This document shows, piece after piece, positions 22,560 through 41,970 of a stretch of DNA of 59,210 nt. Position numbers and translations under genes: made by a program. The notes beneath the pieces were generated by a model, which saw nothing but the letters and a program-made list of their open reading frames with translations, was not told where the DNA came from and made no database searches. The stretch's first letter is position 1. Each line of letters opens with the position of its first letter. The stretch is from Candidatus Thorarchaeota archaeon (GTDB lineage Archaea; Asgardarchaeota; Thorarchaeia; Thorarchaeales; Thorarchaeaceae): NCBI GenBank assembly GCA_048882485.1, contig JBHLRP010000015.1, positions 8,327-67,536 on the forward strand, written 5' to 3'.

Positions 22560-22618
22560 AAAATGAAAGGGCGCTCAGCAGTGTGATAGGGCCAGTTCCC
22601 CAAATGCTCTACTCATAC
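22560..22618 (+). repeat. Dispersed repeat type A (hairpin with compensatory changes)
   Basis: Core + GTGTGATAGGGC...GCTCTACTCATAC. Confidence 0.85.
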
Positions 22619-23015
22619 TATATTCGGTCCGTGACTTATTTCAATCGTCACCAGAATTAGTATCGACCCTTATCTGATTCGCGGGCTCGATTTTCTGATA
22701 AGTCTGGAGTATATTTCAGGCCCGGATAATATTGGACTAGAAATGTGGTGGAAAACGATGGAATCACTGCTAAAATGACTCAGAATTTCACTTGTCCGGC
22801 AGAAAGACAAAGACGGTATATTGAAGATGCAGAGGATCATCCTTGATACGCCTAATATGAACAAATGCTCTCAGATGACTCTCCGCACATTGTTCGAGGT
22901 ATCTTTCGACCTGAATTTCACTTGTTGTTGTTAACAGATGCTGAATCATTTAGATAGCCCCTTATGCACGGCTCTAGACTCTAATGGCAATGCATGCTTC
23001 TTGGTGAGAGTGAAT

Positions 23016-23330
23016 TCAAGCTGCCTCCTGTGTTTCTTGTTCCATTTCCCACTCATCCTCCCCCAGCTCATCCCTCAATAAGCGGATCAAGCGGTTTCTG
23101 GTTATTGCAAAGGTTTCTTGTCTTAGAGCGGTTGTTATGACAGCCAAACTCCTGACAAGATCAAGAATTGGGTATTCACTTGAGCTTGCCAGCCATTTCT
23201 CCTCCTCAAGTATCTCGTCTACCTCTTCTAGGTCTGCTGGCAGATTGATTTCCGATAGAATATGCATAGCATCTCTTCTAAGACGGCTCAATGATTCCGA
23301 TAGTAGATGGATTCTTTCGTTCCCTTCCAT
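23016..23330 (-). CDS. Hypothetical helical acidic protein
   Basis: ORF open to 23411; ATG 23330 follows a purine-rich RBS. No family recognised. Confidence 0.55.
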   Translation of the reverse strand: MEGNERIHLLSESLSRLRRDAMHILSEINLPADLEEVDEILEEEKWLASSSEYPILDLVRSLAVITTALRQETFAITRNRLIRLLRDELGEDEWEMEQETQEAA

Positions 23331-23837
23331 TCTAGTCCCCTCTCTTTTCTGAAATTGGAGCTTTGTGGTCCAATAATGTGCCGCAAATAGACTTGTGCCA
23401 ATCCAATCCATGGCACGGGTTCTCAGAATCTGATGTCATTTTTTCTCTCAATTGTATTCACTTCTAAGTCATTCTTTACATCTAATATGGCTGAAAAAAC
23501 AGGATTCGGATTTAGTACCCAACCTTTGATGTCCGTGATGCATCCAAAGTAATGACCATGAAGGCATCAATTCTTGGACCGAAGGCTGCTTTCTCCAATG
23601 CTATGTCTGTTCTTAGTATATCTAGCAGTTAGTGCGAAGACTTCCGCTTATAAATATAATCAAAAGATTAATAGAACACTATAAAAATTATACAATCGTT
23701 ATATAAATTATTATCTTTAGAATTGTAACTCCACACCTTGGAATATGAATTGTTGTGAGAGTATCAAGTGCATGGTTCAATCTGAAAGTATTTAGTCATG
23801 AACCTTAAGCCCGTGCAGTCAAGGACTGTTATTCATA

Positions 23838-25142
23838 TTGTCAGAGAACCCCATAGAACTAGACGGCGCAGATTCTCCTAGTCCAAACTATGAAGGAAGT
23901 GTACTTACTGTACTAAATCTCTCTCTGGTGACGTTCCTAGTCATCATTGGTCTGAGCATGGTCGCACCAATTCTTCCTACTTACGCGGAGAGCTTTCAAG
24001 TCTCTTACACACTTGTTGGTTTTGTTGTGTCATCCTTTGCAGTAATGCGAATGCTTCTTGATTTGCCTGCAGGTCTTTTCTCAAGGAGGTTTGACAAGAA
24101 GAAAATCATGATGTCAGGCTTGGTTCTAATCTCTACATCATCCGTGCTGGCTGGTTTCGCTCTCAACTATTCTACTCTTGTTATTGCTCGAATGATCGAG
24201 GGAGCAGGTTCAGCTCTGTATGTCACCACAGCAACAGTGTTCCTTGCTCAAATCTCTGGAGAGGAGAAGAGGGGACAATGGATGAGTCTTTACATGGGAA
24301 TGTTGCTTCTCGGTGCCATCTTTGGACCAACATTTGGAGGTATTATTGCAGACGTGTATGATATTCGTGCACCCTTTTTTGCCTACGCATTGATAACAGG
24401 CATTAGTTTGATTCCAACATTCGTATTGCCAAAGCTGCCTAATTCCGGAAATGGCTCTTCTCTTTCCCGAAATCAAATCCTCCATGACATGAAGGAAGTT
24501 CTCTCCACCCCCTCGTTCCTCTTGGTGACCTTTGCAGTCTTCACAACATTCTTTCTGCGAACAGGGGTGAGAACTACGCTAGTACCCCTATATGCGGCTA
24601 ATAACTTGGGGCTAGACTCCGGTGCCATTGGCCTCATCCTTACTATTGGGGGAGTAACAACAGCTCTTACAATTACACCGATGGGAAGTGTTTCAGATAG
24701 AATTGGGAGAAAGATTCCCCTAGCATTATGCCTTATTCTGACTGCGGGAGTTACGTTACTAATCCCACTATCTACAGATCTGTTCACGCTGTCCTTTGCT
24801 ATGGCAGTATATGGAGCGGTCATTGGGTTCTCGGGTCCTAGCGCAGCCTATGTGACTGATGTATCACCACAGGACAAATTGGAGATATCCATGGGACTCT
24901 ATCGAATGATCAGTGACTTTGGTTTCGTCGTGGGACCTCTTCTACTTGGCCTTTTAGCAGACATAACAGCCACTCCTGTAGTTGGAGCATCCCACTCAGG
25001 TCTAATTGGATTGGTTCCTTTTGTGGCGGCATCAATTATCCTTATTGTAGCATTCTTTGTACTCCTAAAGGCTGATGATCCAGCAAAGGATAGAAACCAA
25101 TTGAAGAACAGAGAAGTACAGATTTCTGACGCTCGAAGATAG
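23838..25142 (+). CDS. MFS transporter (DHA1-like)
   Basis: 12 TM; PAG..SRRFDKK and GSVSDRIGRK motif A, ARMIEGAG, GPTFGG. Confidence 0.92.
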   Translation: MSENPIELDGADSPSPNYEGSVLTVLNLSLVTFLVIIGLSMVAPILPTYAESFQVSYTLVGFVVSSFAVMRMLLDLPAGLFSRRFDKKKIMMSGLVLISTSSVLAGFALNYSTLVIARMIEGAGSALYVTTATVFLAQISGEEKRGQWMSLYMGMLLLGAIFGPTFGGIIADVYDIRAPFFAYALITGISLIPTFVLPKLPNSGNGSSLSRNQILHDMKEVLSTPSFLLVTFAVFTTFFLRTGVRTTLVPLYAANNLGLDSGAIGLILTIGGVTTALTITPMGSVSDRIGRKIPLALCLILTAGVTLLIPLSTDLFTLSFAMAVYGAVIGFSGPSAAYVTDVSPQDKLEISMGLYRMISDFGFVVGPLLLGLLADITATPVVGASHSGLIGLVPFVAASIILIVAFFVLLKADDPAKDRNQLKNREVQISDARR

Positions 25143-25157
25143 TCTTCTAGCAAAATT

Positions 25158-25234
25158 AAACGAAAGGATGATCAGCGGTAGGCAATAGGAAATCCATCAA
25201 ATACTCTATCCTGCCACCTCTACTTTCCTCTACC
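25158..25234 (+). repeat. Dispersed repeat type A, overlapping the stop codon of the DinB-like gene
   Basis: AAACGAAAGGATGATCAGCGG...AATACTCTATCCTGCCACCTCTACTTTCCTCTACC. Confidence 0.7.
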
Positions 25235-25726
25235 CTCCTTTATCCAACGCCGAATCCTACTTTTTGCCCATCGATAATGATTAGCGGAGTTCGCCAGAAT
25301 GTAGCCAGCAATATTCTCAGTCCCAGTCCATTCGTATCTACCGACCTCAAACAAATCCTCTTCAGGGATACCATTGATTGTATCAAGCAACCTCTCGTAG
25401 GATGATCGAAATTCTGCCTTCACATCGTCAAGGGTCCGATTTCGATGTTTTTCAAAGACCTCCTGATTCAAGATGTGCAGTTGGCTCCATTTCAGACCTG
25501 GCGCAGGTGTTTCAGGCACTTCACCTCGGAGTCCTGCTTCGTACCATCCAAGAAATCTCTGCTCCCAGTCAAAGAGATGGGCTATGATGTCCTTCACAGA
25601 CCACTCCGCGATGACACCAGGCACCAACATGTCTTCATCAGAAAGGGGCTCGATGTTCTTTTCTAACCTGCGACGTTCAGTATGGATCCTTTCTATAATG
25701 CTCTCCTTGGTTTTACGCTTCTTCAT
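25220..25726 (-). CDS. ClbS/DfsB (DinB superfamily) four-helix bundle protein
   Basis: WSVKDIIAHL.DWE, P.PG.KW....LN, NSANHYRW. Confidence 0.85.
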   Translation of the reverse strand: MKKRKTKESIIERIHTERRRLEKNIEPLSDEDMLVPGVIAEWSVKDIIAHLFDWEQRFLGWYEAGLRGEVPETPAPGLKWSQLHILNQEVFEKHRNRTLDDVKAEFRSSYERLLDTINGIPEEDLFEVGRYEWTGTENIAGYILANSANHYRWAKSRIRRWIKEGRGK

Positions 25727-25808
25727 TTAGACCCACTCACGAATTATCAAATATCGTTGCACTTGCCAGCAATAACTATTGAGTTCGTAGCCATTATAGG
25801 GATAGCAC

Positions 25809-25888
25809 AAAATGAAAAGGGCGTGCAGCAATGGGCAATCCTCAGTAATCAATCTCATCATCGCCTACACTTCTTTCCACCTTAGAAG
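25809..25888 (+). repeat. Dispersed repeat type A
   Basis: AAAATGAAAAGGGCGTGCAGCAATGGGCAATCC...TCGCCTACACTTCTTTCCACCTTAGAAG. Confidence 0.8.
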
Positions 25889-25988
25889 ACAAAGGTGATC
25901 CATCCGCGGCTTCCGCTACGGATACCTTGTTAAATAGTGAAAGAAATCACAAGCAGAATAGACTCACTTCATATCAGAGGGTCAATAA

Positions 25989-26579
25989 ATGAATAGGATG
26001 AATCCCAAGGTTGATGCATATTTGAGCAAAGCCAAAGAGTGGCAGGAAGAATTCGAGAAATTGAGAATGATTATTCTTGATTGTGGGTTGACTGAGGAAT
26101 TGAAGTGGGGCAAGCCTTGCTACACGTTTCAGAAAAGTAACATAGTTATAATTCAGGGATTCAAGGAATATTGTGCACTTCTTTTTTTCAAAGGCGCCTT
26201 GTTGAAAGATGCCAATGGTATTCTAATCAAACCAGGGGAGAATACGCAGGCGGGGCGCCAGATTCGGTTCACCAATTCTCAACAAGTAGATGAGATAGAA
26301 CCAATCTTGAAAGACTATATTCATGAAGCCATTGAAGTGGAAAAAGCGGGTTTGAAGGTTGATTTTAAGCCGACTACAGAATTCAAAATTCCTGGGGAAT
26401 TTCAAAGTAAGTTGGATGAAATCCCTGCCTTGAAAACTGCTTTTGATGCATTGACGCCGGGACGACAAAGAGCGTACATTCTCTATTTCTCTCAACCCAA
26501 ACAATCCAAAACCAGGAATTCAAGGGTTGAAAAATATATGCAGCAAATTCTCAATGGGAAGGGATTGAATGACCGTTAA
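25989..26579 (+). CDS. YdeI/OmpD-associated family protein (DUF1801 + OmdA)
   Basis: NPKVDAYL, LTEELKWGKPCY, FKEYCALLFFKGALL, AFDALTPGRQRAY, KQSKTR..R, GKGLND; very bacterial-like. Confidence 0.92.
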   Translation: MNRMNPKVDAYLSKAKEWQEEFEKLRMIILDCGLTEELKWGKPCYTFQKSNIVIIQGFKEYCALLFFKGALLKDANGILIKPGENTQAGRQIRFTNSQQVDEIEPILKDYIHEAIEVEKAGLKVDFKPTTEFKIPGEFQSKLDEIPALKTAFDALTPGRQRAYILYFSQPKQSKTRNSRVEKYMQQILNGKGLNDR

Positions 26580-26771
26580 ATTCGATGATAGCATAAATTG
26601 ATCAAAATTCAAGATACCGCCTCATTCTTCGTTCATTCGAACTTCGAATCTACTAACTTCAAACAAATCCTCTTCAGCAATGCTATTGAGTTCATAGACA
26701 TTATGATATCAAATACTATCTTTTTCAATGTCTTAAGAAAACCTGCTAAGGTTTGTAGTATTGATGGGCTT

Positions 26772-27683
26772 CTACGGTTTCAGGTTTGTCAAGTCCAAAC
26801 TGACTTCCCAAAGCCGTTTTGCGGTTCCCAAGTCATAGGACTCATCTGAGGATTGCTTTTCTGACTTCTTCTCGAAGTATTTGCCTGTAACACCCTCGAT
26901 CTCAGGGGAAGCCGCGAGATAGATTGAAGTTTCCGCTCCTTTCTCAGGACTGCTTGCGAAGCGGCTAAAGATTCTATAGAGCATCCGATAGAATCGTGAG
27001 AGGTCAGGGTCCTTCTCAACAAGACCAGTAGCTACTGCACCTGGATGAAGACAATTAGCTGTGACCCCTGTGCCATCAAGTCTTCTTGCCAGCTCATAGG
27101 TAAACAGTACCAAAGCTAGTTTGCTCATATTATTCGCTCTCGAGCCATCATACTTGTTCTCTGACATCAGGTCATTGAAATTCATAGTTGCCTTTCTATG
27201 ATAGGCACCGGCCACATTGACTATGCGTGATGGTGCACTCGCTTTGAGTTTCTCAATGAGGAGATTCGTCAATAGGAAAGGGGCCAAGTAATTGACGGCG
27301 AATGTTGTTTCAATACCCTCTTCTGTGATAGTTCTCCTCGTCCTGTACGTTCCCGCATTGTTAACTAAGATATGAAGAGCTTGATAGCGATTCTCAAACT
27401 CTTTGGTAAGCCCTCGAATAGAATCCTGTAATGACAAGTCGCACAACAGAAAGCTGACCTGGTCATTACCTGTCTTGCTAGCAATTTCTTTAGCTGCCGC
27501 CTCTGCCTTCGGTTCATTGCGACACGCTAGCACCACATTTGCACCCATATTCGCAAGTCCAATAGCTGTCGCCTTTCCAATTCCGGAGCTAGCTCCTGTG
27601 ACCATGCAGACCTTGTGTTTCAAATAATCTGACTTGCCATGATTTTCTGTCAAATCGTTCACCTTCCTCCCAATCGCAATCAT
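26772..27683 (-). CDS. Short-chain dehydrogenase/reductase (retinol-dehydrogenase-like)
   Basis: TGASSGIG, LVNNAG, FAVNYLAPFLLT, LHPG.VAT. Catalytic YxxxK appears as NNMSK. Confidence 0.9.
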   Translation of the reverse strand: MIAIGRKVNDLTENHGKSDYLKHKVCMVTGASSGIGKATAIGLANMGANVVLACRNEPKAEAAAKEIASKTGNDQVSFLLCDLSLQDSIRGLTKEFENRYQALHILVNNAGTYRTRRTITEEGIETTFAVNYLAPFLLTNLLIEKLKASAPSRIVNVAGAYHRKATMNFNDLMSENKYDGSRANNMSKLALVLFTYELARRLDGTGVTANCLHPGAVATGLVEKDPDLSRFYRMLYRIFSRFASSPEKGAETSIYLAASPEIEGVTGKYFEKKSEKQSSDESYDLGTAKRLWEVSLDLTNLKP

Positions 27684-27762
27684 TGTAGTTGTTTCATATT
27701 CTGATGATTTACTATTAATCCTCCAGAATCAAGAAGACGTGCTGCTGGCACGGCTTTTGTTG

Positions 27763-27972
27763 CTAATTTGTAATTTGATCTAGGCCAGCAATGCCTAGAC
27801 AAGCCAGAGCAATCCCAGCAAGGGATTGATCGACTGGTTGGCCAACTATTGGTAGTATGACTATAACAACTCCCATCGCCAGTGCAATTGCATATAGTAC
27901 AAGAATCACCAACTTTTTCGGGGAAAGCCCCTCAGATGCCAAATCTTCTCTAATCTCTTCCATTTCTCTCAT
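27763..27972 (-). CDS. Small two-TM membrane protein
   Basis: 69-aa ORF with two hydrophobic helices. Confidence 0.6.
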   Translation of the reverse strand: MREMEEIREDLASEGLSPKKLVILVLYAIALAMGVVIVILPIVGQPVDQSLAGIALACLGIAGLDQITN

Positions 27973-28147
27973 CTCTTAGAACTTTGCGACATCACTCAAT
28001 GACCAATATCACTCTTCATTCGTATCTCAACCAAGATAAGAGTATAACGATGTTATGATTAAGAGGGAAGGCGGCTTAAGGCTGTGTCCTGTGAAGGTTT
28101 TCGTATATTTCCAACCTCAAGCATCATGCAATTGACTTCTTTCCAGT

Positions 28148-28216
28148 AAAATGAAAGGGTGCTCAGCAATGTGAGAAGGGCAGTTCCCCAATGCTCTCTC
28201 TCACCGCCGCCTCTGC
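28148..28216 (+). repeat. Dispersed repeat type A
   Basis: Core + GTGAGAAGGGCAGTTCCCCAATGCTCTCTCTCACCGCCGCCTCT. Confidence 0.92.
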
Positions 28217-28222
28217 ACCCAA

Positions 28223-28450
28223 TTAAGCCACCTTTTCAAAATCAACCGTTAAGGCTTGTCCACAATATGGACACTCTATCCTGTCGGGGCCAATCCAGTT
28301 CACCTTTTCAGTGTGAATGCTCGCCCCACAGTTGAAGCATTTCTGTGGAACTCGAGGCATCAGCATAGCCGATGTACCGCGATCAATTCGCTCAGGATTT
28401 CTCACCGTTACTCTGGATTTTCTCTTTCTTGTTGCACTTCCGCATCCCAT
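28223..28450 (-). CDS. Small zinc-ribbon protein
   Basis: CFNCGA ... V.W.GP...ECPYCG; two CxxC pairs. Confidence 0.7.
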   Translation of the reverse strand: MGCGSATRKRKSRVTVRNPERIDRGTSAMLMPRVPQKCFNCGASIHTEKVNWIGPDRIECPYCGQALTVDFEKVA

Positions 28451-28879
28451 CTGTTTCTCATCCTTCCTAATCATTTGATAAATAGTTTCTAATTCTCCCT
28501 GCGAAGACTCTCAGGTCTTCCTTATAATCAAGCATTAGCAACACAACTCTACTAGAAATTCCACCAACAAATAGAGGCGATACAAACATCAGTTCTTGCA
28601 TTTCATGTCATCCCCGTTATTTGTTAAAGGAAACCGCAAACAGGAGAGCTCTTCCGGATGTTCGGTATCGGTCAATGCGACGGCGTTTAGGGCGCATGCT
28701 GCTGTGCAAAGCCCTGATCTGTTCGGCCTTGTTCCCATCGCGGCCTAGACCGATGGATCCATCGACTGACTCTTCCTCAGCTCGACTTGTGGTTTTACGT
28801 TCTATTGATACATAACTTGTTTCACACGCCATGTTAATCACATGATACTAGATGCTAAGAACTCAGTTTAGTATTATAG

Positions 28880-28918
28880 CGTAATATGACGGTAGTAGTT
28901 TTTAAACGTAATATTACG
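28880..28918. promoter_or_regulatory. Two palindromic sites CGTAATAT(G/T)ACG upstream of a Bat-type HTH gene
   Basis: CGTAATATGACG at 28880-28891 and the perfect CGTAATATTACG at 28907-28918; related to 31595-31614. Confidence 0.55.
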
Positions 28919-28937
28919 GCTCATACTATATATTGCA

Positions 28938-29639
28938 ATGAAACAATGGAAGGGTATGCCACTCTTCGAAGTCACATTCAAAGTAAGTCATGATTGTCCA
29001 GTTGGAAACATTTCACGCAAGCATCCACCATTGAAGATATTTCAATGGTGTAATCGTGAACATGATGTCCTAGAGTTAGTTATTCGGAATCAGAACGAAT
29101 ACTCCAGCATTCGGGGTGATTTGCAGAAGACCATGAATATCATGAATGAGGTATCAGATAGCGATAGAGTACATTTGGTCACGAAATCATGTTCTTGTCT
29201 AGAACCTGGATCTGTAAGCCGCTATCTCGAGGAGTTGAACTTCCTCGAATTCAACCCAGTATATTATGAGAAGGGTTGGGAATACTACAGGATAGTTGCG
29301 TTCAAGCATGAAGATATCACGAGGTTGATGAGGAATCTCACAACTGAAGAGTTTGAAGTCGAAATACTACGAAAGAAACCGTACAGTGGTTCGTTCATCA
29401 GCTCAATGGCGATGACGGCAGATACTCTGTTCTCAGAACTGACAGATAAGCAAATGGATGCCCTGGTCACCGCTTACTCTCATGGATACTTCAGTTTTCC
29501 AAGAAGAGCGAATGTTCAGACGATAGCGGAGAGGTTGCATGTTCCAAGAACTACATTTGTCGATCATTTGAAGAAAGCGGAAGGAAAATTGGTGGCTGCA
29601 CTCGTCCCATATATCCAGCTTTTCCGGCGTGCAAAATAA
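28938..29639 (+). CDS. Bacterio-opsin-activator-type (HTH_10) transcription regulator
   Basis: N-terminal HDCP; C-terminal LTDKQ..AL..AY.HGYF.FPR.A....IA..L......F..HL.KAE.KL. Confidence 0.9.
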   Translation: MKQWKGMPLFEVTFKVSHDCPVGNISRKHPPLKIFQWCNREHDVLELVIRNQNEYSSIRGDLQKTMNIMNEVSDSDRVHLVTKSCSCLEPGSVSRYLEELNFLEFNPVYYEKGWEYYRIVAFKHEDITRLMRNLTTEEFEVEILRKKPYSGSFISSMAMTADTLFSELTDKQMDALVTAYSHGYFSFPRRANVQTIAERLHVPRTTFVDHLKKAEGKLVAALVPYIQLFRRAK

Positions 29640-29656
29640 TGCATAGCAACCGCTGT

Positions 29657-29736
29657 AAAATGAAAGGGGGCTCAGCAATGAGCATTTGGTAATCCCCCAA
29701 TACTCTATCATCGCCGCCTCTACTTCTCTCTATCTT
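29657..29736 (+). repeat. Dispersed repeat type A variant
   Basis: Core + GAGCATTTGGTAATCCCCCAATACTC + TATCATCGCCGCCTCTACTTCTCTCTA. Confidence 0.9.
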
Positions 29737-29930
29737 GAGATCTATTGCTGTTTCTCCATGCAGACATCAAAGCCCCAAGGATCCTGAACCTTGGAGGCCA
29801 ATGTGTATCGTAGTTTCTCGAAAAATCTGATAGCATCAATATCGGGGAGTGGTCCAGATGGAATTATTGGCGGTGTTGTAGGTGGGATTATATTCTCGTC
29901 GAGTTGTAGCAGCTTGGAATATCAGGCGTC

Positions 29931-30410
29931 CTATTCCATACTAGCAAGTACCCAATTAGCCACACTTTGTGCTACTTGATTCCTTTCAGTTTCAGGGACC
30001 GCGTCAATATCGAACACATTCGTATACTTCTTATAATGAGACAATGCATCGAATTGAACCAACTTATCTTCAGGAATCAGATTTTCTAGAATCCGTCCCC
30101 AACATCGCATAAAACATCCGTCGATTAGTATGACTTTGTCTGCTGCTGCAACCCAATTATCAAATCCTGAACCGGGCACAGTGAGTACTTCACCATGACA
30201 TGCTTGTCGAAACCCGTCGTTTTTCGAAACTATGTTTGCGGCTAATCGAGCGATTTCCCCTCGGATACATGCTCCTGCACAGGCTAGAATGGGTGTTTTC
30301 TTCTCCGACATAAATTGAGCACCCGTTTTCTCTCCAATAGGACACCGTTTAGTAGTTCCTGTTACATCTAGAGTAAAATCCGTATTCGGTTCTCTCATGA
30401 GCATTCTCAC
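29931..30410 (-). CDS. DGC-domain putative zinc-binding protein
   Basis: CP.GE, ACAGACIRGEIARLAAN, ACH, IDGCFMRC.GR. Confidence 0.75.
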   Translation of the reverse strand: MRMLMREPNTDFTLDVTGTTKRCPIGEKTGAQFMSEKKTPILACAGACIRGEIARLAANIVSKNDGFRQACHGEVLTVPGSGFDNWVAAADKVILIDGCFMRCWGRILENLIPEDKLVQFDALSHYKKYTNVFDIDAVPETERNQVAQSVANWVLASME

Positions 30411-30567
30411 ATTTTGTATGTCTGCAAACTGTGCTAATAAGCAGCTTAGTCGAATTTGCTATAGTACAAAAGGGTCAATAGACCTGAATCACAAATCAAA
30501 TCCTAATGCATCGAGCTAAAAGGCCCAATCATACTTCTTATTTGTCATTCGGCACACGCTCAATGTC

Positions 30568-31425: not shown

Positions 31426-31508
31426 TTGGGTTCTATCAATAAGGCAATACAGTATGGTCAGGACAGATACTACCTTCTTCATCGAGGTTAATCGTCACAT
31501 ATTGAATG

Positions 31509-31556
31509 AAAATGAAATGGTGCTCAGCAATGAGTAATTACCCAAATACTCGATTA
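31509..31556 (+). repeat. Dispersed repeat, truncated
   Basis: AAAATGAAATGGTGCTCAGCAATGAGTAATTACCCAAATACTC. Confidence 0.8.
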
Positions 31557-31594
31557 CTCTGACTCCATGATGTAGTCCGCCAAAAACCGAGGAG

Positions 31595-31614
31595 ATACTG
31601 TCATATGACAGTAT
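31595..31614. promoter_or_regulatory. Perfect 20-bp palindrome ATACTGTCATATGACAGTAT upstream of the second Bat-type HTH gene
   Basis: Exact inverted repeat about 30 bp before the start; core GT(A/C)ATAT(G/T)AC shared with 28880-28918. Confidence 0.65.
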
Positions 31615-31641
31615 ACAATACATTACGCAATAAGGAGAGAA

Positions 31642-32777: not shown

Positions 32778-32871
32778 GTTTTGATGTGTTGTCTTGAGGC
32801 TGTATCAGACATAAGGTTAGTACTGACTTTAGACTGGACCAAGTAATCAGAACGGGGGATGAAAGAGATGC

Positions 32872-32897
32872 AAAATGAAAGGGTGCTCAGCAATGCG
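32872..32897 (+). repeat. Dispersed repeat, perfect core only
   Basis: AAAATGAAAGGGTGCTCAGCAATG. Confidence 0.8.
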
Positions 32898-32992
32898 GAG
32901 AGAACCACCAACTTAAGATGAAAGATGATAGTGCAGGCGCCAACTCTTGTTTCAGTGAACAATCATCGTTCTGGCCCCTATTCCTACTTTGA

Positions 32993-34126: not shown

Positions 34127-34353
34127 TTCTAGTCACCTGGCTCTCCATACCATGCACTTGAAAAGCTCGGCTCATAAGTCTAGTCACCAACCAACCTAGA
34201 CTCATTATGATGTTACTGGATTCTTGACTCCCTTCCAATAGCCGTTTCTAGACAGCTTAGGTGAATGCAAGGAGGTCCTCATTGAAGTAGTTCACAACAG
34301 GAGTCTATTAATTCACAAGGCGATTGACATCCGATTTGATACAATAAGAGTGG

Positions 34354-34427
34354 AAAATGAGAGGGTGCTCAGCAGGTGGAGAATGGGAAAGTTCCCTGTT
34401 CATCCGACCCCTTCAGCCTCCGCTTCT
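34354..34427 (+). repeat. Dispersed repeat, degenerate
   Basis: AAAATGAGAGGGTGCTCAGCAGGTGGAGAATGGGAAAGTTCCC...GCCTCCGCTTCT. Confidence 0.75.
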
Positions 34428-34458
34428 TGGCCATCTAATCTTGATTTGAATGACTATG

Positions 34459-34620
34459 CTATGAAAGCGAGAGTTTGGATGACTTTGTTGCATGTCGCGT
34501 TATTTCAAGATTGCATGATTTGTGTTTAATACACCATTGCTCACATTTCTTTGCCCAGTCTTCATCTTCATACATTAGATGGCATTCCTCACATTCATAG
34601 AGCCCGTTAATTTCCTTCAT
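34459..34620 (-). CDS. Small zinc-finger protein
   Basis: YECEECHLMYEDEDWAKKCEQWC..HKSCNLEITRHA; CxxC/C/C/H ligand set. Confidence 0.7.
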   Translation of the reverse strand: MKEINGLYECEECHLMYEDEDWAKKCEQWCIKHKSCNLEITRHATKSSKLSLS

Positions 34621-34686
34621 AATCTTGAGTTTCACTTGGACAGTTATCTCTGTTATGAAAGGGGAGTTTGAGTAATTCACTGAAGA

Positions 34687-34780
34687 AAAATGAAAGGGTG
34701 CTCAGCAATGTGAGAAGGGCATTTCCCCAATACTCTATCTCACCGCCGCCTACACTTCTCTCTACCTTGGAAGGAAAAGG
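34687..34780 (+). repeat. Dispersed repeat, full type A (near consensus)
   Basis: AAAATGAAAGGGTGCTCAGCAATGTGAGAAGGGCATTTCCCCAATACTCTATCTCACCGCCGCCTACACTTCTCTCTACCTTGGAAGG. Confidence 0.95.
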
Positions 34781-34994
34781 AATCCAACCTAGCTGACTAT
34801 GAATCAAAGATATCTATTATTGCGGCCTGTCGATGCTCGATTTCTATCTGGTTCACACACCGCCTGCTCTGAACGTCATCTTTAATTCAAGCCAGAATAA
34901 TGGCCTCTGATAAGATACAATCTCTATGCGAATTCAGATTCTTGGAATCAGAAGCAAAAACACAGGTGCAGATAGGTTTCGAAGGGATCCTAAG

Positions 34995-36107
34995 ATGAAG
35001 ACTAGGACCGCCATTGTCATTTGGATTATAGCTTTGATCCTCACTCTAAATCCGGGAACAATTCACTTAGTATCTGGAGCAGATACGAATGAGGTTGTGC
35101 TAGCAAGGATAGGGCAGATTGAAACTGCCGATGCTTATGATTTGTGGGTTGATCCTAACAATGACATTGCCTATGTCACCTGCGGTTACTCCGGAGTAAT
35201 AGTACTCGATGTAAGCGAACCTCACAATCCGACTGAGCTAGCACTTATGCCTTCTTCTTCAAATGGATATGCCCATCAGTTTGTCATGCGCGAGAATCTG
35301 ATGTTCATAGGTGATGGCAATGGTGGGCTCAAAATTATCGACTGGGCGAACTTGTCGAATCCTAATCTTTTGAGCCAGTATACCGGGGAGTATTCATGGG
35401 ATGTAGAGGTGGAAGGAAATACTGCATTCGTGGCCAATGGCTTCATGGGCAGTGGCGATAGACTAACAATTGTCAATATTACTGATCCTACCAATCCCAT
35501 GCTTTTAGGAAGCCACACTACCGTCGGAGACGCAACCGACATTGAAGTTGCGGAGAATCTGGCATTTGTGACAACCAGCTACGCCGGAATCACTGTCTTT
35601 GATGTGAGTAATCGCACGAATCCGGTTCAGGTAGGACAGTACACAGGACAATCGACTAGCAATGCAGAATTGGGCGACCTCGAAATTGTTGACAACTTGG
35701 CCTATCTGAGTTATTGGGAGAAAGGCTTGAAGGTACTGAATATTAGTGACATATCAAGTATTGAATTGGTAGCTGAATTCAATGAGAGTTTGAATGCTTT
35801 TTCAGTCCACATCGAGAGGGACAGCAGTCTGGGCTTTCTCTGTGACCACGAACTGGGGTTAGTGGTGCTGGACATCAGTATTCCAACCCAACCTAATGAG
35901 ATTGGCCAATACTTTGATGGGGGCAAGCCCAATCGCATACAAGTGGTAGATAATCTCGTCTACATGACTGACTCAGATAATGGATTCGTTATTCTAGAGA
36001 TTATAGAGAATCATACATTCATATCAGGTTTTGAGCTGGTATTGATTGTTGGAAGCATCGTGTCCATCCTCGCAGTTGGTTGGTGGCTAAGAAAGAGAAA
36101 ATCATAA
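34995..36107 (+). CDS. Secreted LVIVD-repeat beta-propeller protein with C-terminal membrane anchor
   Basis: Signal peptide; repeated AYV...G..V.DVS.P.NP units; C-terminal TM followed by RKRKS. Confidence 0.85.
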   Translation: MKTRTAIVIWIIALILTLNPGTIHLVSGADTNEVVLARIGQIETADAYDLWVDPNNDIAYVTCGYSGVIVLDVSEPHNPTELALMPSSSNGYAHQFVMRENLMFIGDGNGGLKIIDWANLSNPNLLSQYTGEYSWDVEVEGNTAFVANGFMGSGDRLTIVNITDPTNPMLLGSHTTVGDATDIEVAENLAFVTTSYAGITVFDVSNRTNPVQVGQYTGQSTSNAELGDLEIVDNLAYLSYWEKGLKVLNISDISSIELVAEFNESLNAFSVHIERDSSLGFLCDHELGLVVLDISIPTQPNEIGQYFDGGKPNRIQVVDNLVYMTDSDNGFVILEIIENHTFISGFELVLIVGSIVSILAVGWWLRKRKS

Positions 36108-36155
36108 TTCAATGATGAAAATCTGGGAAAATCTTGATTGTTAAGATTATAATGC

Positions 36156-36180
36156 AAAATAGAAGCGTGCTCAACAGCAG
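36156..36180 (+). repeat. Dispersed repeat, degenerate core
   Basis: AAAATAGAAGCGTGCTCAACAGCAG. Confidence 0.55.
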
Positions 36181-36206
36181 ATATGATTTAGCCAAAACTG
36201 TGTAAC

Positions 36207-36593
36207 TCAACTAGGTCTGGAACGAATGAAGCCGCCAATGAATTGAGATTTGACACTCACATCGATCCCCGATCCAGCAACCTTCTTAATCATCTCTATA
36301 GCATAATTGTGGGGCGTGCCATAAATCTCGATGCTGGTTGGTTCAATGAACTTGTAGGTTATTTTTGTTCGTTGATCAGCTCCCTGTAATTGTTGATCTA
36401 ATGCCTCCGCATTCGGAAAGATACGAATGATATCCACCTCAGTGGCATCGTCGTTGATGTATGCAAGCTGGATAATCGTACCTTGCTTGCTTTTCTCTGT
36501 CTGCGGGATGCTTTTCTGGTAGTGATTCTTGAAATCATCGAACATCCCTTGCTTTACTCGATGGCGGATGATGAATACGATAGAGTCAGTCAT
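36207..36593 (-). CDS. ABM/dimeric alpha-beta barrel-like protein
   Basis: IVFI...VK.G..DDFK, GT...LAY.NDD.TEV, IEIYGTP, GGF.R. Confidence 0.65.
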   Translation of the reverse strand: MTDSIVFIIRHRVKQGMFDDFKNHYQKSIPQTEKSKQGTIIQLAYINDDATEVDIIRIFPNAEALDQQLQGADQRTKITYKFIEPTSIEIYGTPHNYAIEMIKKVAGSGIDVSVKSQFIGGFIRSRPS

Positions 36594-36617
36594 TTGGCAT
36601 CATTCTGCAAACGATTC

Positions 36618-37049
36618 TTAGGTTTCAGACTCGATGAGCTGCTTCATATTTCGACCACTCCGTTCCAAGCGGCTGGTTATGAAACTCTTATCCATGGACT
36701 CAGCCATTCCGGGAATATCAATAACAGTCGTTACGGTGGTTTGATTCTCACCTACAGCCTCGAATGTAATCAGTCCACGCATCTCAGCGGGACCGTCATG
36801 GATAATCGTTCCCATGGCACGGTTAGGCTCGAATTCCACCACTTCCATGGTCCCCTCAACGGGAGTACCGCTGCGGCTGTTGCGTCTGCGAATAATTGTC
36901 CCAACTCCAATTGGACCGTCCGATTCCAGAGAGAGCTCTATGTCTGGATCCCAGCGTGGATGGTTACGGACGTGTTGTTCAGCGACGAAGTGAAAAACTT
37001 TTGTTACTGGCCGATTAATAACCTGCGAGTATCTTATTTGTGCTGGCAT
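36618..37049 (-). CDS. SRPBCC/polyketide-cyclase family protein
   Basis: I.RPV..VF.FVA...NHPRWDP, GPIGVGT, EVVEFEPNR, MKQLIES. Confidence 0.85.
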   Translation of the reverse strand: MPAQIRYSQVINRPVTKVFHFVAEQHVRNHPRWDPDIELSLESDGPIGVGTIIRRRNSRSGTPVEGTMEVVEFEPNRAMGTIIHDGPAEMRGLITFEAVGENQTTVTTVIDIPGMAESMDKSFITSRLERSGRNMKQLIESET

Positions 37050-37151
37050 GGTCCTCACCGTATATTAACTATTGTTAATATGATGCCCTAGTTCATATAA
37101 TCTTAGTGTTAGGTGTCCATCTATAACAGCCAAGTCAGGAATGATAATCGC

Positions 37152-37296
37152 AAAATGAAGAGGGTGCTCAACAGTGTGGGCAGGTAAGGACCATACTCTT
37201 GGCGCGTGGGCAACCTGTCGATTAGAAAGCGTACTCCTATCGTAAGCCAGCATCTCTCTCTGTCAGAGAACGAGCAAGCTGTTTCGCAATTTGAAT
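37152..37296 (+). repeat. Dispersed repeat type B (core + long alternative tail)
   Basis: Core + GGTAAGGACCA...GGCAACCT...AAGCC...CTCTCT...CAAGCTGT, homologous to 56820-56956. Confidence 0.75.
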
Positions 37297-37318
37297 CGTG
37301 TGACAATCTTGTGGCGAT

Positions 37319-38305
37319 TTATTTTGTAAATTGATACTGTTGATAATCGTTCTTGCAAGGATATCCTACCGCCAGATGAACCATACCGGTGCCAAGTTCA
37401 CAGAACCAAGAATAGATAGTGCCTCCAGGGGGATTATTCAGGTGCTCACATATACCAGTATTATGACTCCTACAGATTCTCTTGATGTCTTCAAGATTTA
37501 TGTCATTATTGGATTGAGTGAACCATTCCATGATTCGACGATGATAGGTCCATGCCCGGTCATCCTTTGGCATAGAGTCCAATTCTTTCATACTATCAAG
37601 CATGAAGAAATTACACACGATTCTAAGGTTGCCCTCAGAAATTTCGGCATCGACCCTTATTGGCGTGCATTCCACACGTGCTGAAACCCCTGTCTTGTCA
37701 GCGACAAGATATACTATTGGCCGAACATGAGGAATACTCTTTAGATATTCGACGGTTTCTTCAACACTAGAGAAATTGTCTAGCGACCATCTTGTAGCAA
37801 GACTCTCAAGAATACCTACTCCATTCTCTCCAATATAGAATGGAATGGAGGCCGATCCTATTGCCAGTCCAGTTTCATTCAATCCATCAAAGCATCCAAG
37901 ATCAGCAAAGTTGAAACCAAGTACAGAATGCTTTCCTACTGGTTTCGTCTGAAGCAGATTAAGAAACTTGAGATCATCTTCTATCCAATCCATGTGGCGC
38001 ACAAAGATAGGCAGTCTATTGCGAGTGCTTTCTCCCTTTACAAAAAAAAGATTACAACCATTTGAAGCCACAGGGAGAATATGTGTAGCAAGAATCTGCG
38101 GATACTCCAGACCTATTCCATCTGAAAATCCTCTCAGCTCGTCAAGTAGATCAGGGGCATGTGCCCTCACTGCGTCTTCACAGGCATATGCGTACTCCAA
38201 TCTCTCATTATCAGGAGTATGATATAGTGGCTTATCAGCCCTCCGGGACCTTCCAAACGCCTTTCCAATTTCGTAGTAGCTACCTTCGAGCTGTAGATAT
38301 TCCAA
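37319..38305 (-). CDS. Peptidase C45 / acyl-CoA:6-APA acyltransferase family (Ntn hydrolase)
   Basis: LEGSYYEIG..FG, P.LLDELRG, GCN nucleophile, R.MDW, DGLNE.GL, D..G...VE. Confidence 0.85.
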   Translation of the reverse strand: MEYLQLEGSYYEIGKAFGRSRRADKPLYHTPDNERLEYAYACEDAVRAHAPDLLDELRGFSDGIGLEYPQILATHILPVASNGCNLFFVKGESTRNRLPIFVRHMDWIEDDLKFLNLLQTKPVGKHSVLGFNFADLGCFDGLNETGLAIGSASIPFYIGENGVGILESLATRWSLDNFSSVEETVEYLKSIPHVRPIVYLVADKTGVSARVECTPIRVDAEISEGNLRIVCNFFMLDSMKELDSMPKDDRAWTYHRRIMEWFTQSNNDINLEDIKRICRSHNTGICEHLNNPPGGTIYSWFCELGTGMVHLAVGYPCKNDYQQYQFTK

Positions 38306-38413
38306 TATTCATCTCTCCGCTTATCATTAGGCTGAATTCTAAATTGAAGTATGAAGCTCAATATTGAATTATAAGAATTTGCAGGAATTGTATATACTAT
38401 CTATTCAATTGAT

Positions 38414-38508
38414 AAAATGAAAAGGGTGCTCAGCAATGTGAGAAGGGCATTTCCCCAATACTCTATCTCACCGCCGCCTACACTTCTCATTACCTTAGAA
38501 GGTAAAGG
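38414..38508 (+). repeat. Dispersed repeat, full type A (near consensus)
   Basis: Almost identical to 34687-34780. Confidence 0.95.
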
Positions 38509-38541
38509 TCGGATGGATTTCATACACGAAGTTAAGGAAAC

Positions 38542-39102
38542 TTACAATCCCTCGTGTGAAAGATTCAAGAATTCAATCGACTCATCCAAGGAAAGCACGA
38601 CACCAAGCTCCTCAGGGTTCGTTTCCAGCCAGCCATCTAGGTGTTTCTGATCAGGGAAGAAGTTGTAGTGATCGCAGAAGGGGATGCCCTTGGGGCCGTC
38701 CCCTATCCAAAAAACGATTGAAGGATGGGAGGTACGAACGAGTTTGCTGTCCTCAATCTCGATTTCCATCTTCTCACCACAGTGGAAACAGGTGGCCTTA
38801 ACTAAGCCTTCACCACGCAGCAGAGCCGTCCCTAGGGAATCGTAGCCGCACATGACCTTTATCTCGCGCCCATCCGGCGAAACGATGGACTGCCCGCGCT
38901 CTATATCTGTTTCTCCGATTGTGACCTTGCCTTTCCGAATCGATGCTACCCATTCTCGACCCCCGGCTGTCGCCAGCACCTGTGCTCTAGCAAACTTGAT
39001 GAGCTCAGTCAGGGTGGCGGGGGGTTTTCCCATCCCATACTGTTTCTGTAACCGTTTGCTCAGGTCTGGGTCTAATTTCACTTCTCTCATCAGCATTCCC
39101 AA
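38542..39102 (-). CDS. merB: Alkylmercury lyase-like protein
   Basis: MCGYDSLG (catalytic Cys/Asp), CFHCGE, FCDHYNFF (second catalytic Cys), followed by W and L.L.E. Confidence 0.75.
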   Translation of the reverse strand: MGMLMREVKLDPDLSKRLQKQYGMGKPPATLTELIKFARAQVLATAGGREWVASIRKGKVTIGETDIERGQSIVSPDGREIKVMCGYDSLGTALLRGEGLVKATCFHCGEKMEIEIEDSKLVRTSHPSIVFWIGDGPKGIPFCDHYNFFPDQKHLDGWLETNPEELGVVLSLDESIEFLNLSHEGL

Positions 39103-39306
39103 ATGACTCTTACTGTATCAGGAAAAGAGCATTGCCTTAGCTGCATGAGTAAGGAATCAATCGTGGTAAGCTGAACACCCCGCTGAAGCGCCAAGCTGTT
39201 TTGAGATGCTTGAATCAAGACCTCCTTTAACTCAAAGATTCATTTGTTTAGCTTGCACAGCAAGATAGCTTAGAAACATGAGTTCCACTCACAAGTCAGA
39301 CGTCAG

Positions 39307-39383
39307 AAAATGAAAGGGTGCTCAGCAGTGTAAGAAGGGCATTTCCCCAATACTCTATCTCACCGCCGCCTCTACTTCTCTCT
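39307..39383 (+). repeat. Dispersed repeat, full type A
   Basis: Core + GTAAGAAGGGCATTTCCCCAATACTCTATCTCACCGCCGCCTCTACTTCTCTCT. Confidence 0.95.
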
Positions 39384-39727
39384 GATAAATACATCGACCT
39401 TGTTACTGGATTGAACATGTTGAAAACAGGTTTAATCTTCTATCATACTGGAACATGATGTGAGGTTGTCATGTTCGGATTATCTGTTGGTAATCAGAAT
39501 TAGGCCAGGTTAATACTTGTTATCTAGTTAGCCTTTCAAGATACAATTGGATGTGCTCGAATTTCTGAAAAGGTATGCATCATAAGAAGCGATTTATTGT
39601 CAACGGGAAGATAAGTATACGGAATTTGAGATACCGATAGCACGGCTCTCACCTTTATGATCTAGGGAGCCTGTTAATCCACGTATAGGCCGAGTGATGC
39701 AAGACTGTACGCTATGACTGCAAAGGC

Positions 39728-41203
39728 TTGGTCAAAGGAATGGCATTAACAAATCCAACCAATGATAAATTCCCTAAGGCAAGAGAAGCTCTTGAAAGAA
39801 TCTTGGAACAATCGCTGGAAGGCGTCGCCATCATCGGGAAAGACAAAAGAATAGAGTACATTAATGATAGGGCTTGTGAGATCATCGGCCGGACACGGGA
39901 TGAAGTCATTGGTCAATCTTTCCAAGGATTTGTCCATCAGGATAGCTCCGATTTTGTCATTGAGCGTTATGCTAGCAGGCTGAATGGGGAGCTAATTCCT
40001 TCAACTTATGAGGCTCGAGTGCTTTGTGGTGATCATGACGCGAGGGATGTTCGAATCCAGACCACTGTATTGACGAATGGTGAGAGTGAGATCAAGATAC
40101 TGGCACAGCTTATCGACATAACTGAGGAGAAGAGGTTTCAAAGGGCCTTGTCTGAGCGTGAGATGGTATATCATACACTAGTTAAGACCATGAATGAAGG
40201 CATTGGAGTCATTGATGACCATGGTGTCTTTGTACAATCAAATAAGGCTCTAGGCAAAATGCTGGACTATTCGGAAGAAGAAATCATAGGCATGACAACG
40301 GCTGACATCATGCATGGACTTGATGGAGATGCCCTGTCCGACAAGATTAGGGACAGGATAGCTGGCAAATCAGAGCGCTATGAAACGCATCTTATTCACA
40401 GGTCAGGAACACTGATCCCTGCGATGGTATCAGCAGCTCCGATATTCAGCGACTGTGGTGAGTACGCGGGCAGTTGTGTTGTGATTACTGACATCACCAG
40501 ACAGAAAATCATAGAAAGGAATCTCCAGACGGCCAGAAGACGAGCAGAACTGTATCTTGATTTAATGAGACACGATATCCGAAACAACCTTCAAGAGATT
40601 CAAATTTCTGCAGAGCTCTTAGGGCTCAACGTTGACGACTCTTCAGTTCGTGATTTCTTGGAGAATATTCTACGTGCAGTGTCAAAATCTACTACTATCA
40701 TCTCGAATTCGAGGACTATAGATCAGTTGACTGAACTACCGCTGCGTGAAAGGTTACTAGATGAAGTCCTGTGTGAAAGCATGAAGGATGCATCAATACT
40801 CCTCGAGGATGTTGTGATAAGCCTCTCACTTCATGTATCAAATGCGCTAATCAGAGCGGATGACTATCTGGAGCTATTGCTTTCTGATTTGCTCGCAAAT
40901 GCATACTATTGCAATCCTGCAGAGATGAAACGAATCTGGGTTGACCTCGAAGGTGGGGAGAAAGTCTATGAACTCTCCATTAGTGACAATGGGCCGGGAA
41001 TGTCGGACAGTGTTAAACATAGCTTGTTCAATCCTGACTCTCGTATTGAAGGAGTTGATATGCTCCTAGCCCACCACATCGTCGAGAAATACGAGGGAAC
41101 AATCGAGGTTCATGACAGAGTGCCTGATGACCAAGATCAAGGCAAGAAGATTAGGGTGATTTTTCCAAGATTGGACAAGTCAGAGGATTCGGATTATAAA
41201 TGA
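39728..41203 (+). CDS. PAS-PAS sensor histidine kinase
   Basis: Two PAS domains, H-box RHDIRNNL, N-box LL.NA, G1 DNGPGM; G2 box degenerate (EGVDM). Confidence 0.88.
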   Translation: MVKGMALTNPTNDKFPKAREALERILEQSLEGVAIIGKDKRIEYINDRACEIIGRTRDEVIGQSFQGFVHQDSSDFVIERYASRLNGELIPSTYEARVLCGDHDARDVRIQTTVLTNGESEIKILAQLIDITEEKRFQRALSEREMVYHTLVKTMNEGIGVIDDHGVFVQSNKALGKMLDYSEEEIIGMTTADIMHGLDGDALSDKIRDRIAGKSERYETHLIHRSGTLIPAMVSAAPIFSDCGEYAGSCVVITDITRQKIIERNLQTARRRAELYLDLMRHDIRNNLQEIQISAELLGLNVDDSSVRDFLENILRAVSKSTTIISNSRTIDQLTELPLRERLLDEVLCESMKDASILLEDVVISLSLHVSNALIRADDYLELLLSDLLANAYYCNPAEMKRIWVDLEGGEKVYELSISDNGPGMSDSVKHSLFNPDSRIEGVDMLLAHHIVEKYEGTIEVHDRVPDDQDQGKKIRVIFPRLDKSEDSDYK

Positions 41204-41265
41204 GCAATGGGCAATCCCCCAATACTCTATCACCGCCGCCTCTACTTCTCTCTACCATAGAAGGG
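41199..41265 (+). repeat. Dispersed repeat type A lacking the core; supplies the stop codon of the histidine kinase
   Basis: AATGAGCAATGGGCAATCCCCCAATACTCTATCACCGCCGCCTCTACTTCTCTCTACCATAGAAGG. Confidence 0.9.
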
Positions 41266-41390
41266 AAGTAAATCATTGGATTCTTCCTATCTGTGTGGAC
41301 TAGACCAAATCACAGCTCAAGGACAGTGCCTAGTAAAAGGTCAAGATTAGAATGGATTCTGCTTGGACATGACTTCTTTTATGAATACTA

Positions 41391-41888
41391 TTGCATGAAA
41401 CGGTTATGAAAGACCCAGATGCACATCAAAAGGAACTTGAGAAACTGGTAACGGAGATTAGAGCGGCTCGGTCAAAACCAAAGAGACTCAAAACTCTATT
41501 GGAAGAGTATGAACGAGATTTCGGATCAGAAGCTGAGCAGAGAGTTCTTGAGATTATTGCAGAAAATACCAAAGCGGCGTGGGCAAGTATTGCTGAGGAA
41601 CGGGGGGATAATGGTATTCAGGGAATTCTTGACACCCTGTGGGAATCCTTCAGGAGTGCAGGTGGAGAGTTCACAGTAGAGAGAACTGAGAACTCGGCCC
41701 GGATTAATTGTACGAGATGTCCAATGGCTGACACATACCGCAAGATTGGAAAACCAGAGTATGGATTGATTTTTCATTGCAGTACTGACCCACACATAGT
41801 GGCTGGATTCAACCCCGAGATGGAGTTCAAGAGGACAAAAACACTCATGACAGATGACTGTTGTGACCATTATTACTGTCTGAGTTGA
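41391..41888 (+). CDS. L-2-amino-thiazoline-4-carboxylate-hydrolase-like (V4R-related) protein
   Basis: CTRCPMA..YR..G..EYG..F.C..D....GFNP...FKRTKTLM.DDCCDH.Y. Confidence 0.85.
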   Translation: MHETVMKDPDAHQKELEKLVTEIRAARSKPKRLKTLLEEYERDFGSEAEQRVLEIIAENTKAAWASIAEERGDNGIQGILDTLWESFRSAGGEFTVERTENSARINCTRCPMADTYRKIGKPEYGLIFHCSTDPHIVAGFNPEMEFKRTKTLMTDDCCDHYYCLS

Positions 41889-41921
41889 ATATCGATTCTT
41901 ACATACACTATGGAAGAAATC

Positions 41922-41970
41922 AATGCAGAAAGGGTGCTCAGCAATGTGAGATGGGCATTTCCCCATTACT
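41922..41970 (+). repeat. Dispersed repeat type A, truncated
   Basis: GAAAGGGTGCTCAGCAATGTGAGATGGGCATTTCCCCATTACT. Confidence 0.88.

Follow-up and report, generated by a model that had tools for sequence, protein, structure and literature searches.

Accessory gene modules separated by displaced copies of the 16S rRNA 3' trailer in a Thorarchaeota archaeon, and a putative RNA-guided nuclease element of its relatives that may promote gene capture

The window analysed here comprises 59,210 nucleotides of a Candidatus Thorarchaeota archaeon (GCA_048882485.1, contig JBHLRP010000015.1, positions 8,327 to 67,536). It contains 21 copies of one repeat, all in the same orientation, which separate modules of unrelated accessory genes. 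Fifteen copies lie within 22560-41970, at spacings of 333-2598 nt, and six lie elsewhere in the window. Each of the 21 starts listed in the original prediction carries the element on one strand, and the observation on which that prediction rests is therefore confirmed. A profile built only from native 16S trailers of relatives found 20 of the copies, all on the same strand, and only one weak hit on the opposite strand. Outside the contig of this array (C15), copies were found only on two short contigs, C143 (three) and C124 (one), and none in the other 3.89 Mb of the genome. Logan contigs from two studies, one of which may be the source sample, bridge several copies with at most a few differences, so the junctions are not an assembly artefact. 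The low cover of 38.3-41 kb in one run (X5) has no bridging contig and was not counted. The joints in the Logan contigs fit other module orders in co-occurring relatives, although they do not distinguish circles from rearranged chromosomes.

The cargo assignments were confirmed by Pfam and include MFS, DinB, YdeI/OmdA, SDR, HTH_10, NTF2-like, M24, LVIVD, SRPBCC, C45/AAT, MerB, PAS kinase, and ATC hydrolase. The genes face both ways (13 minus, 9 plus), and there are multi-gene modules. Ten orphan genes of the window had no NCBIfam hit, and no recombinase is encoded in the array. A 9.4-kb module with glutamate dehydrogenases, TauE, ferredoxin, and HTH (1740..11169) lies at a different array position in the relative G005. 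A hydrogenase/heterodisulfide-reductase-type module (15846..22394, minus strand) is bounded by copies also in the relatives G009 and G011 but is absent at this place in G005. The MFS module (23838..25142, plus strand) occurs in seven genomes with different neighbours. The MerB module (38542..39102, minus strand) is repeat-bounded also in G012 (91% amino acid identity).

The repeat is the reverse complement of the 3' trailer of the host's own 16S rRNA, and the rRNA sense of all copies is the minus strand. In the genomes G011, G018, G005, and G016, the repeat abuts the 3' end of the 16S gene. Copy 25809..25932 runs into the 16S itself: it includes the last ~42 nt of the gene (25893-25932) and begins at position -43 relative to the 16S end, a mini-intron and guide site described below. 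Searches of the window with Rfam and ARAGORN returned nothing, the 16S piece in this copy being below threshold. The trailer core pairs with the 16S 5' leader, and leader and core show compensatory changes at five positions. Co-folding in two species gave long stems but no clear canonical bulge-helix-bulge motif. The copies were originally described as structured; however, they are not significant hairpins on their own (single-stranded DNA z of 0.62 to -1.27 for the two best copies), and their structure is pairing with the leader.

The copies differ in length and state of preservation. Those at 1652..1676, 11179..11201, and 36156..36177 are worn down to about 20-25 nt; copy 1652, of which only the core is left, is supported mainly because homology blocks with relatives end there. 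Copies 32872..32895 and 36156..36177 also consist of the core only, and copy 25158..25226 is worn. Near-complete copies starting at +7 behind the 16S end are located at 34687..34779 and 38414..38507; other copies start at +14 (11921..12008) or at +23 (29657..29730 and 39307..39383). Further trailer copies are located at 22560..22615 and 41922..41970. Copy 41199..41266 touches the stop codon of the kinase gene and lacks the first 20 nt, that is, the distal core. Copies 37152..37283, 56820..56942, and 59126..59210 are of a long type; the first of these represents a foreign lineage, and the left 90 nt of the second repeat the flank of copy 11921. The third lies at the contig end and, by orientation, the unassembled 16S gene lies beyond this end. 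Copy 34354..34438 is a mosaic with the core of its own genus followed by a trailer of the type found in another genus (g5), and the 333-nt module behind it is also repeat-bounded in the g5 genome G078.

Modules are gained, lost, and reordered among relatives with breakpoints in the copies. Of 143 flank-sharing pairs of copies, 138 share one side only, and 25 of 35 ends of homology blocks fall at copies (7.9% expected). For example, the left flank of copy 28148..28214 is shared with G005 and its right flank with G009, while both flanks of the old copy 15614..15690 are shared with G011. The modules between 28148 and 31509 are missing in G005, where the remaining sequence is joined at the core; copy 31509..31553 marks the right end of this segment. 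This exchange of modules agrees with the original prediction, as does the finding that the repeat is neither attC nor CRISPR; it is not a MITE either. None of the 21 copies has attC ends (RYYYAAC ... GTTRRRY) on either strand. With spacers of 0.3-15 kb, copies of 18-233 nt, and no PF01867, the locus does not correspond to a CRISPR array. A MITE or other small mobile element is refuted by the confinement of copies to one locus and one strand per genome, by their identity to the 16S trailer, and by the fact that modules, not repeats, differ between relatives; terminal inverted repeats and target-site duplications were not found, and nothing beyond the size of the repeat speaks for this reading.

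The interpretation given in the original prediction is only partly supported, since the claim that the repeat is the dedicated site of an undescribed recombinase is not supported. The core is retained even in copies of 18-25 nt and several crossovers map to it, which would agree with a site-specific recombinase acting in trans on the 20-nt core. However, conservation of the core is explained by pairing with the leader, and switch points are not fixed but lie at about 22, 50-57, 80, and 140 nt. No tyrosine or serine recombinase, Y1 transposase, reverse transcriptase, canonical Cas1, or IS110 was found in this 90.5% complete genome. PF00589 occurs in 29 of 86 genomes of the family, is not tied to arrays in the family, and is missing from most array-bearing genomes of the genus. 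With variable switch points, no attC boxes, and no integrase accompanying the arrays, shuffling looks homology-driven. The conserved genes around arrays and 16S genes are not recombinases according to Pfam. The same layout, with unrelated trailer sequences, was found in other Asgard families. We therefore consider a recombinase of this kind very unlikely. Retroposition from the end of the pre-rRNA was also rejected, since no reverse transcriptase was found and the boundary is not a splice site.

In eight genera of relatives (g1, g3, g5, g6, g7, g8, g10, and g12), a two-gene element encoding a giant protein with a predicted Cas1 fold and a TnpB abuts the trailer; the giant gene or its 3' fragment ends about 25-75 nt from a trailer copy. 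In a structure model of the giant protein (pLDDT 88), the N-terminal 215 residues match Cas1 (Z 13.0, rmsd 3.7, 178 aligned residues); matches to Cas1 and casposase structures ranged over Z 13.0-11.4 and rmsd 3.5-3.8. Sequence searches of this protein against Atlas and PDB were blank. TnpB retains both aspartates and has the Gly/alternative-Glu RuvC-II arrangement (PMC10691335). The putative guides, 12-27 nt in length, match four sites in the 3' part of the 16S gene, each behind CGGAT or AGAAT, and these are the mini-intron sites. The element-linked 16S lacks the intact target for the eight guides that could be checked, although two 12-nt guides (G071 and G091) match their own 16S. Terminal guides end at +1..+6. 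The 1625-aa ORF behind the 16S gene of G040 did not match the giant-protein profiles.

Copy starts rise sharply at +4, and 36 of 84 independent starts lie at +4..+24, with a small cluster at -42..-45. The interval +4..+24 was chosen after seeing the data, the uniform null is naive, and longer copies may be lost by assembly breaks. Copies in G090, G078, and G103 carry a 16S mini-intron that the host 16S lacks. The 16S genes are mostly 95-99% identical between genera. A tree test for mosaic 16S genes gave p-AU values of 0.13-0.88.

Taken together, we interpret the array as an additive island behind the single, unlinked 16S rRNA gene of Thorarchaeota, in which each repeat is a displaced host trailer. 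The identity of repeat and trailer, the exchange of modules at the copies, and the existence of mosaic copies that are host-type on the distal side and donor-type on the 16S side are demonstrated by our data. The mechanism, including guide-directed cleavage or integration, is inferred from guides, motifs, and the pattern of protected alleles; no cutting, joining, or circle was observed. In the view that we consider somewhat more likely than not, the TnpB of an aCas1-TnpB element riding behind intron-protected 16S alleles would cut an unprotected 16S end, at about +5 to +11 for the last guide. The upstream end would be repaired by copying incoming DNA through 16S homology (16S end, trailer, then element or cargo), while the downstream end, the host trailer from the cut onwards, would be joined to the far end of the new DNA and stay as a repeat, as a scar of the cut. 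Once flanked by copies, modules would move, excise, or reorder by RadA-type or microhomology recombination between trailer copies, also between genera, without a dedicated enzyme. The original proposal of an enzyme encoded elsewhere may be right in another sense, in that an RNA-guided TnpB with 16S-matching guides and a Cas1-fold partner exists in relatives.

Several facts speak against this model. The present assembly contains no 16S gene and no 16S-guided element, although its 16S-proximal end is not assembled either; its one giant gene (on contig C50) and its TnpB copies belong to other clades. G005, G011, G016, G081, and G090 have arrays with unprotected 16S and no intact element (only a TnpB fragment in G090), so the element must be transient or dispensable. 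The sharp distal boundary over 123 unrelated flanks is not fully explained.

Host recombination alone remains possible, though less likely. In this case, foreign DNA carrying a 16S end, trailer, and neighbouring genes would integrate by homology in the 16S gene and by microhomology at the far end, with the TnpB element as a mere passenger module whose guides matter only for its own spread. Arrays without the element, the presence of RadA, the variable switch points, and the same layout in the Asgard families f5 and f23, where no homolog of the giant protein was found, agree with this view. It does not explain why copy starts pile up just behind the target of the last guide rather than spreading, nor why the element abuts the trailer in eight genera. 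It is unlikely that the giant protein is a true RNA-guided integrase, which would be positioned by TnpB and guides, nick at the 16S end and at the trailer end, and insert element or cargo with a long target duplication, as Cas1 duplicates a CRISPR repeat. The predicted fold, the fixed distal boundary, the insertion of the same family at tRNA genes, and the proposal of aCas1 as a transposase (PMC10691335) are in its favour. On the other hand, proximal ends vary over 200 nt, copies are mosaics, cargo modules share no element end sequence, and neither terminal inverted repeats nor short target duplications were detected.

Several described systems resemble parts of this array. In HeimM2 of Ca. 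Heimdallarchaeum (Wu et al., 2022, PMC8813620), accessory DNA is inserted directly behind the only 16S gene of an Asgard archaeon, and in the H. aukensis genome we revealed a 95% direct copy of the 16S end and trailer (-20..+113) located 6.6 kb downstream. That system has one module instead of an array of more than 20; as far as we could see, the repeat is not mentioned there, a LAGLIDADG endonuclease is credited, and no link to TnpB is shown. Close homologs of the HeimM2 enzyme were found in only 3 of 86 genomes, all inside 16S introns, so that LAGLIDADG enzymes were rejected as the general driver and retained as a minor trigger. The aCas1-associated TnpB loci Cas1H-Asgard-1/-2 (Altae-Tran et al., 2023, PMC10691335) share the giant Cas1-fold protein plus TnpB, the TTCACTC motif behind tnpB, the restriction to Asgard archaea, and several target classes. 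That study gives no target and places a possible guide before the motif, while here several guides follow it and match the 16S gene, and the element is tied to a cassette array. Literature searches for Thorarchaeota arrays and for TnpB guides on 16S found nothing relevant.

Additive islands formed by tandem accretion at tRNA and tmRNA 3' ends also grow at the end of a stable-RNA gene, with direct repeats of the target between modules and loose polarity. In the array, copies of the target gene end likewise bracket the inserts, and core identity falls with distance from 16S (rho -0.32). However, the target is an rRNA trailer, no tyrosine integrase was found, the repeats are of very variable length, and the crossover is not fixed. 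Integrons and CALINs, including archaeal ones (Ghaly et al., 2022, PMC9668308), also form one chromosomal array of short accessory modules between repeats that is reshuffled and exchanged between lineages. The array differs by the absence of attC boxes, hairpin, and IntI, by genes in both orientations, and by modules of up to 9-15 kb. In 16S rRNA intron homing with co-conversion in Thermoproteales (Jay and Inskeep, 2015, PMC4496867), short hairpin introns at recurrent 16S sites are spread by a nuclease encoded elsewhere, and LAGLIDADG introns at site 870 also occur in the genomes studied here. In our case, the candidate nuclease is RNA-guided, lies outside the rRNA gene, and would drag downstream genes along.

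If the proposed mechanism is correct, it would be a route to cassette-style gene exchange in the archaeal relatives of eukaryotes that needs no integrase and uses the most conserved gene as the anchor, so that it works across genera. It gives the untested Asgard aCas1-TnpB element a concrete target, motif, and predicted cut site, which makes it testable in vitro, and offers a reason for the mini-introns in these 16S genes. It also explains why Thorarchaeota assemblies often break behind the 16S gene and hide this accessory gene pool. A more far-reaching reading, which is tentative, is that of a natural RNA-guided drive building an integron-like platform. In this reading, a multi-guide TnpB with a Cas1-fold partner would cut intron-free 16S genes and spread intron-protected alleles, and each round would leave a displaced trailer that turns the rRNA tail into a gene-capture and shuffling array across Thorarchaeota, with parallels in other Asgard families.

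The survey for a possible vector among viral contigs revealed 32 single core matches, none of which extends into the trailer; this is at chance level, so no vector was found. Two metagenome scans returned 0 and 1 hit, respectively.

Twenty-one positions of the window had been predicted to carry one and the same element on one strand, and this observation held at every one of them. In the 3.96-Mb genome, the element occurs only on contig C15, which contains the window, and on two short contigs that look like further pieces of the array. In related genomes, it is again clustered and confined to one strand per contig. An exact pattern of the repeat core hits 65 of 86 genomes of the family, as compared to 4 hits for the reversed control. 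The protein families that the original prediction had assigned to the modules were confirmed as well. Contigs from two studies bridge several copies of the repeat. Just left of the window, a 77-nt exact repeat (window 1-77 and C15:8150-8226) lies across a scaffold gap of N and is probably an assembly overlap.

The origin of the repeat was examined by comparison with the 16S rRNA genes of relatives. In three related genomes (G011, G018, and G005), a 16S gene lies at the end of the array on the opposite strand, and the last copy of the repeat is its 3' trailer. The best copies in the window match that trailer over 92-94 nt, and the copy at 25809 continues for about 42 nt into the 16S. A profile made only of native trailers recovers 20 of the 21 copies. 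The core pairs with the 16S 5' leader, with compensatory changes at five positions in 15 genomes, so its conservation is an rRNA function. The copies are not good hairpins and possess no attC boxes. The 16S gene of this genome itself is not assembled; by orientation, it lies beyond the right end of the window. Unlinked rRNA genes are the rule in these archaea (PMC8997704), which leaves the space behind the 16S free. In one further relative (locus L095; contig C82 of genome G015), the 16S combines a Thorarchaeota leader with a very different 3' half and lacks the trailer core; this is probably an assembly chimera.

Comparison with relatives revealed that the modules move. Against its close relative G005, the window falls into five blocks, with the order A-B-C-D-E here and A-C-D-E-B there, and three modules are missing. 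Over all relatives, 25 of 35 block ends fall at copies of the repeat, while 7.9% would be expected. Of 143 pairs of copies that share a flank, 138 share only one, although these pairs are not independent. One junction in G005 has lost the repeat. The 333-nt module at 34354 is repeat-bounded also in another genus, and its copy here is of the trailer type of that genus. The CO dehydrogenase module (window 12345-15245) has a 75% paralog on contig C28 and the PAS kinase (window 39688-41000) a 70% paralog on contig C34, so modules duplicate core functions. A 14.9-kb stretch without copies (window 41970-56820) contains mostly orphans plus metallophosphoesterase, DUF362, TPR, endonuclease/exonuclease/phosphatase, and pYEATS; none of these is shared with the arrays retrieved from relatives.

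The copies range in length from 18 to 233 nt. Their distal end, that is the T-rich end of the trailer, is sharp, while the 16S-side end is variable. Many copies are mosaics, being host-type distally and foreign on the 16S side, with switch points near 22, 50-57, 80, and 140 nt. Copies in three related genomes (G090, G078, and G103) contain a 16S mini-intron that the host's own gene lacks. This is what insertion at the native trailer by homology predicts, and it argues against a fixed crossover. The sharp distal boundary, however, is better explained by the rival possibility of an integrase-type mechanism. Mosaic 16S genes could not be shown. No tyrosine or serine recombinase, Y1 transposase, reverse transcriptase, canonical Cas1, or IS110 transposase is in the genome, while RadA is present. 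Tyrosine recombinases do not follow the arrays. The suggestion of an undescribed gene-capture system, with its enzyme encoded elsewhere, was only partly supported: the modules are gained, lost, and reordered with breakpoints in the repeat, but that the repeat is the dedicated site of an unknown recombinase was not supported.

Outside the family, four genomes of two other Asgard families have direct copies of their own, unrelated 16S end and trailer 3-16 kb downstream. One of these is H. aukensis, where the bracketed block is part of the published HeimM2. The position matters, not the sequence. The array is not an integron, CRISPR, or MITE. It works like an additive island at a stable-RNA gene end and like an integron in outcome, but does not qualify as either. 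We found no published description beyond the single HeimM2 insert, in a literature collection that lacks most subscription journals. The present work adds the analysis of junctions, the spread to other Asgard families, and a testable link to the TnpB with 16S-matching guides described below.

The survey of recurrent array genes revealed a 1,700-aa gene and a divergent TnpB gene right behind the trailer, which represent a candidate trigger. The family of the giant protein is multi-copy in 51 of 86 genomes. Some copies sit at tRNA genes; in three loci (L208, L210, and L215), the stop codon is followed by tRNA 3' parts, so the family also targets tRNA genes. One clade, or its 3' fragment, ends about 25-75 nt from a trailer copy in eight genera. 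A confident structural model of residues 1-900 shows a predicted Cas1-fold N-terminus and a predicted RecA-fold domain, which fits the aCas1-TnpB loci of PMC10691335. The TnpB has the rearranged RuvC-II regarded as active in that study.

Behind tnpB of the 16S clade lie several units composed of a short handle plus 12-27 nt that match the 16S at -197..-181, about -155..-130, -46..-33, and -10..+9, relative to the 16S 3' end. Every target follows CGGAT or AGAAT. These are the sites where Thorarchaeota 16S genes carry 30-nt mini-introns. In the 16S genes of the family (loci L050-L077), such mini-introns recur at G011 positions 657, 870, 1310, 1316, 1334, 1346, 1357, 1459, and 1492, with a patchy presence across genera. 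Introns of 612-900 nt occur at position 870, three of them with a LAGLIDADG gene 43-48% identical to the HeimM2 enzyme. For eight guides where the linked 16S is assembled, it lacks the intact target; two 12-nt guides are exceptions. Some TnpB guides (locus L091 behind 7417 and locus L093 behind 8994) appear to match intron-bearing 16S alleles and not intronless ones, which suggests an arms race between alleles.

TnpB cuts about 15-21 nt behind its motif, so the last guide would cut at about +5..+11. Independent copies start abruptly at +4, and 36 of 84 start at +4..+24; a small group starts at -42..-45, behind the predicted cut of the second guide. Copies in the window start at +7, +7, +14, +15, +23, +23, and -42. 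The terminal guides end at +1..+6. So the copies look like the downstream halves of cut 16S loci. This clustering could partly reflect the loss of long repeats in assembly, and the +4..+24 window was chosen afterwards. Moreover, the element is absent from this assembly and from several array-bearing genomes with unprotected 16S. In the proposed sequence of events, the 16S end would be cut, repaired from incoming DNA through 16S homology (16S genes of different genera are mostly 95-99% identical), and the displaced host trailer would be joined to the far end; host recombination would later reshuffle modules between copies. Guide-directed cutting, repair, and joining are all inferred from sequence alone. 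For the reshuffling, the breakpoints are shown by our comparisons, while the enzyme is inferred.

Candidate genes of related type or position were also found elsewhere. The genome under study possesses its own giant-protein/TnpB pair (1579 and 702 aa; locus L213:450-7506 on contig C50), which belongs to another clade and lies beside a DNA polymerase subunit and cdc6-like genes. Further TnpB pieces are present on contigs C99, C25, and C145. In genomes of another Asgard family, f5, a 1625-aa orphan ORF (L116:13290-18167 and L118:8245-10143) is located directly behind the 16S, in the same position and orientation as the Thorarchaeota giant gene but with no detectable similarity to it, and HEPN and SIR2-STAND defence genes occur nearby.
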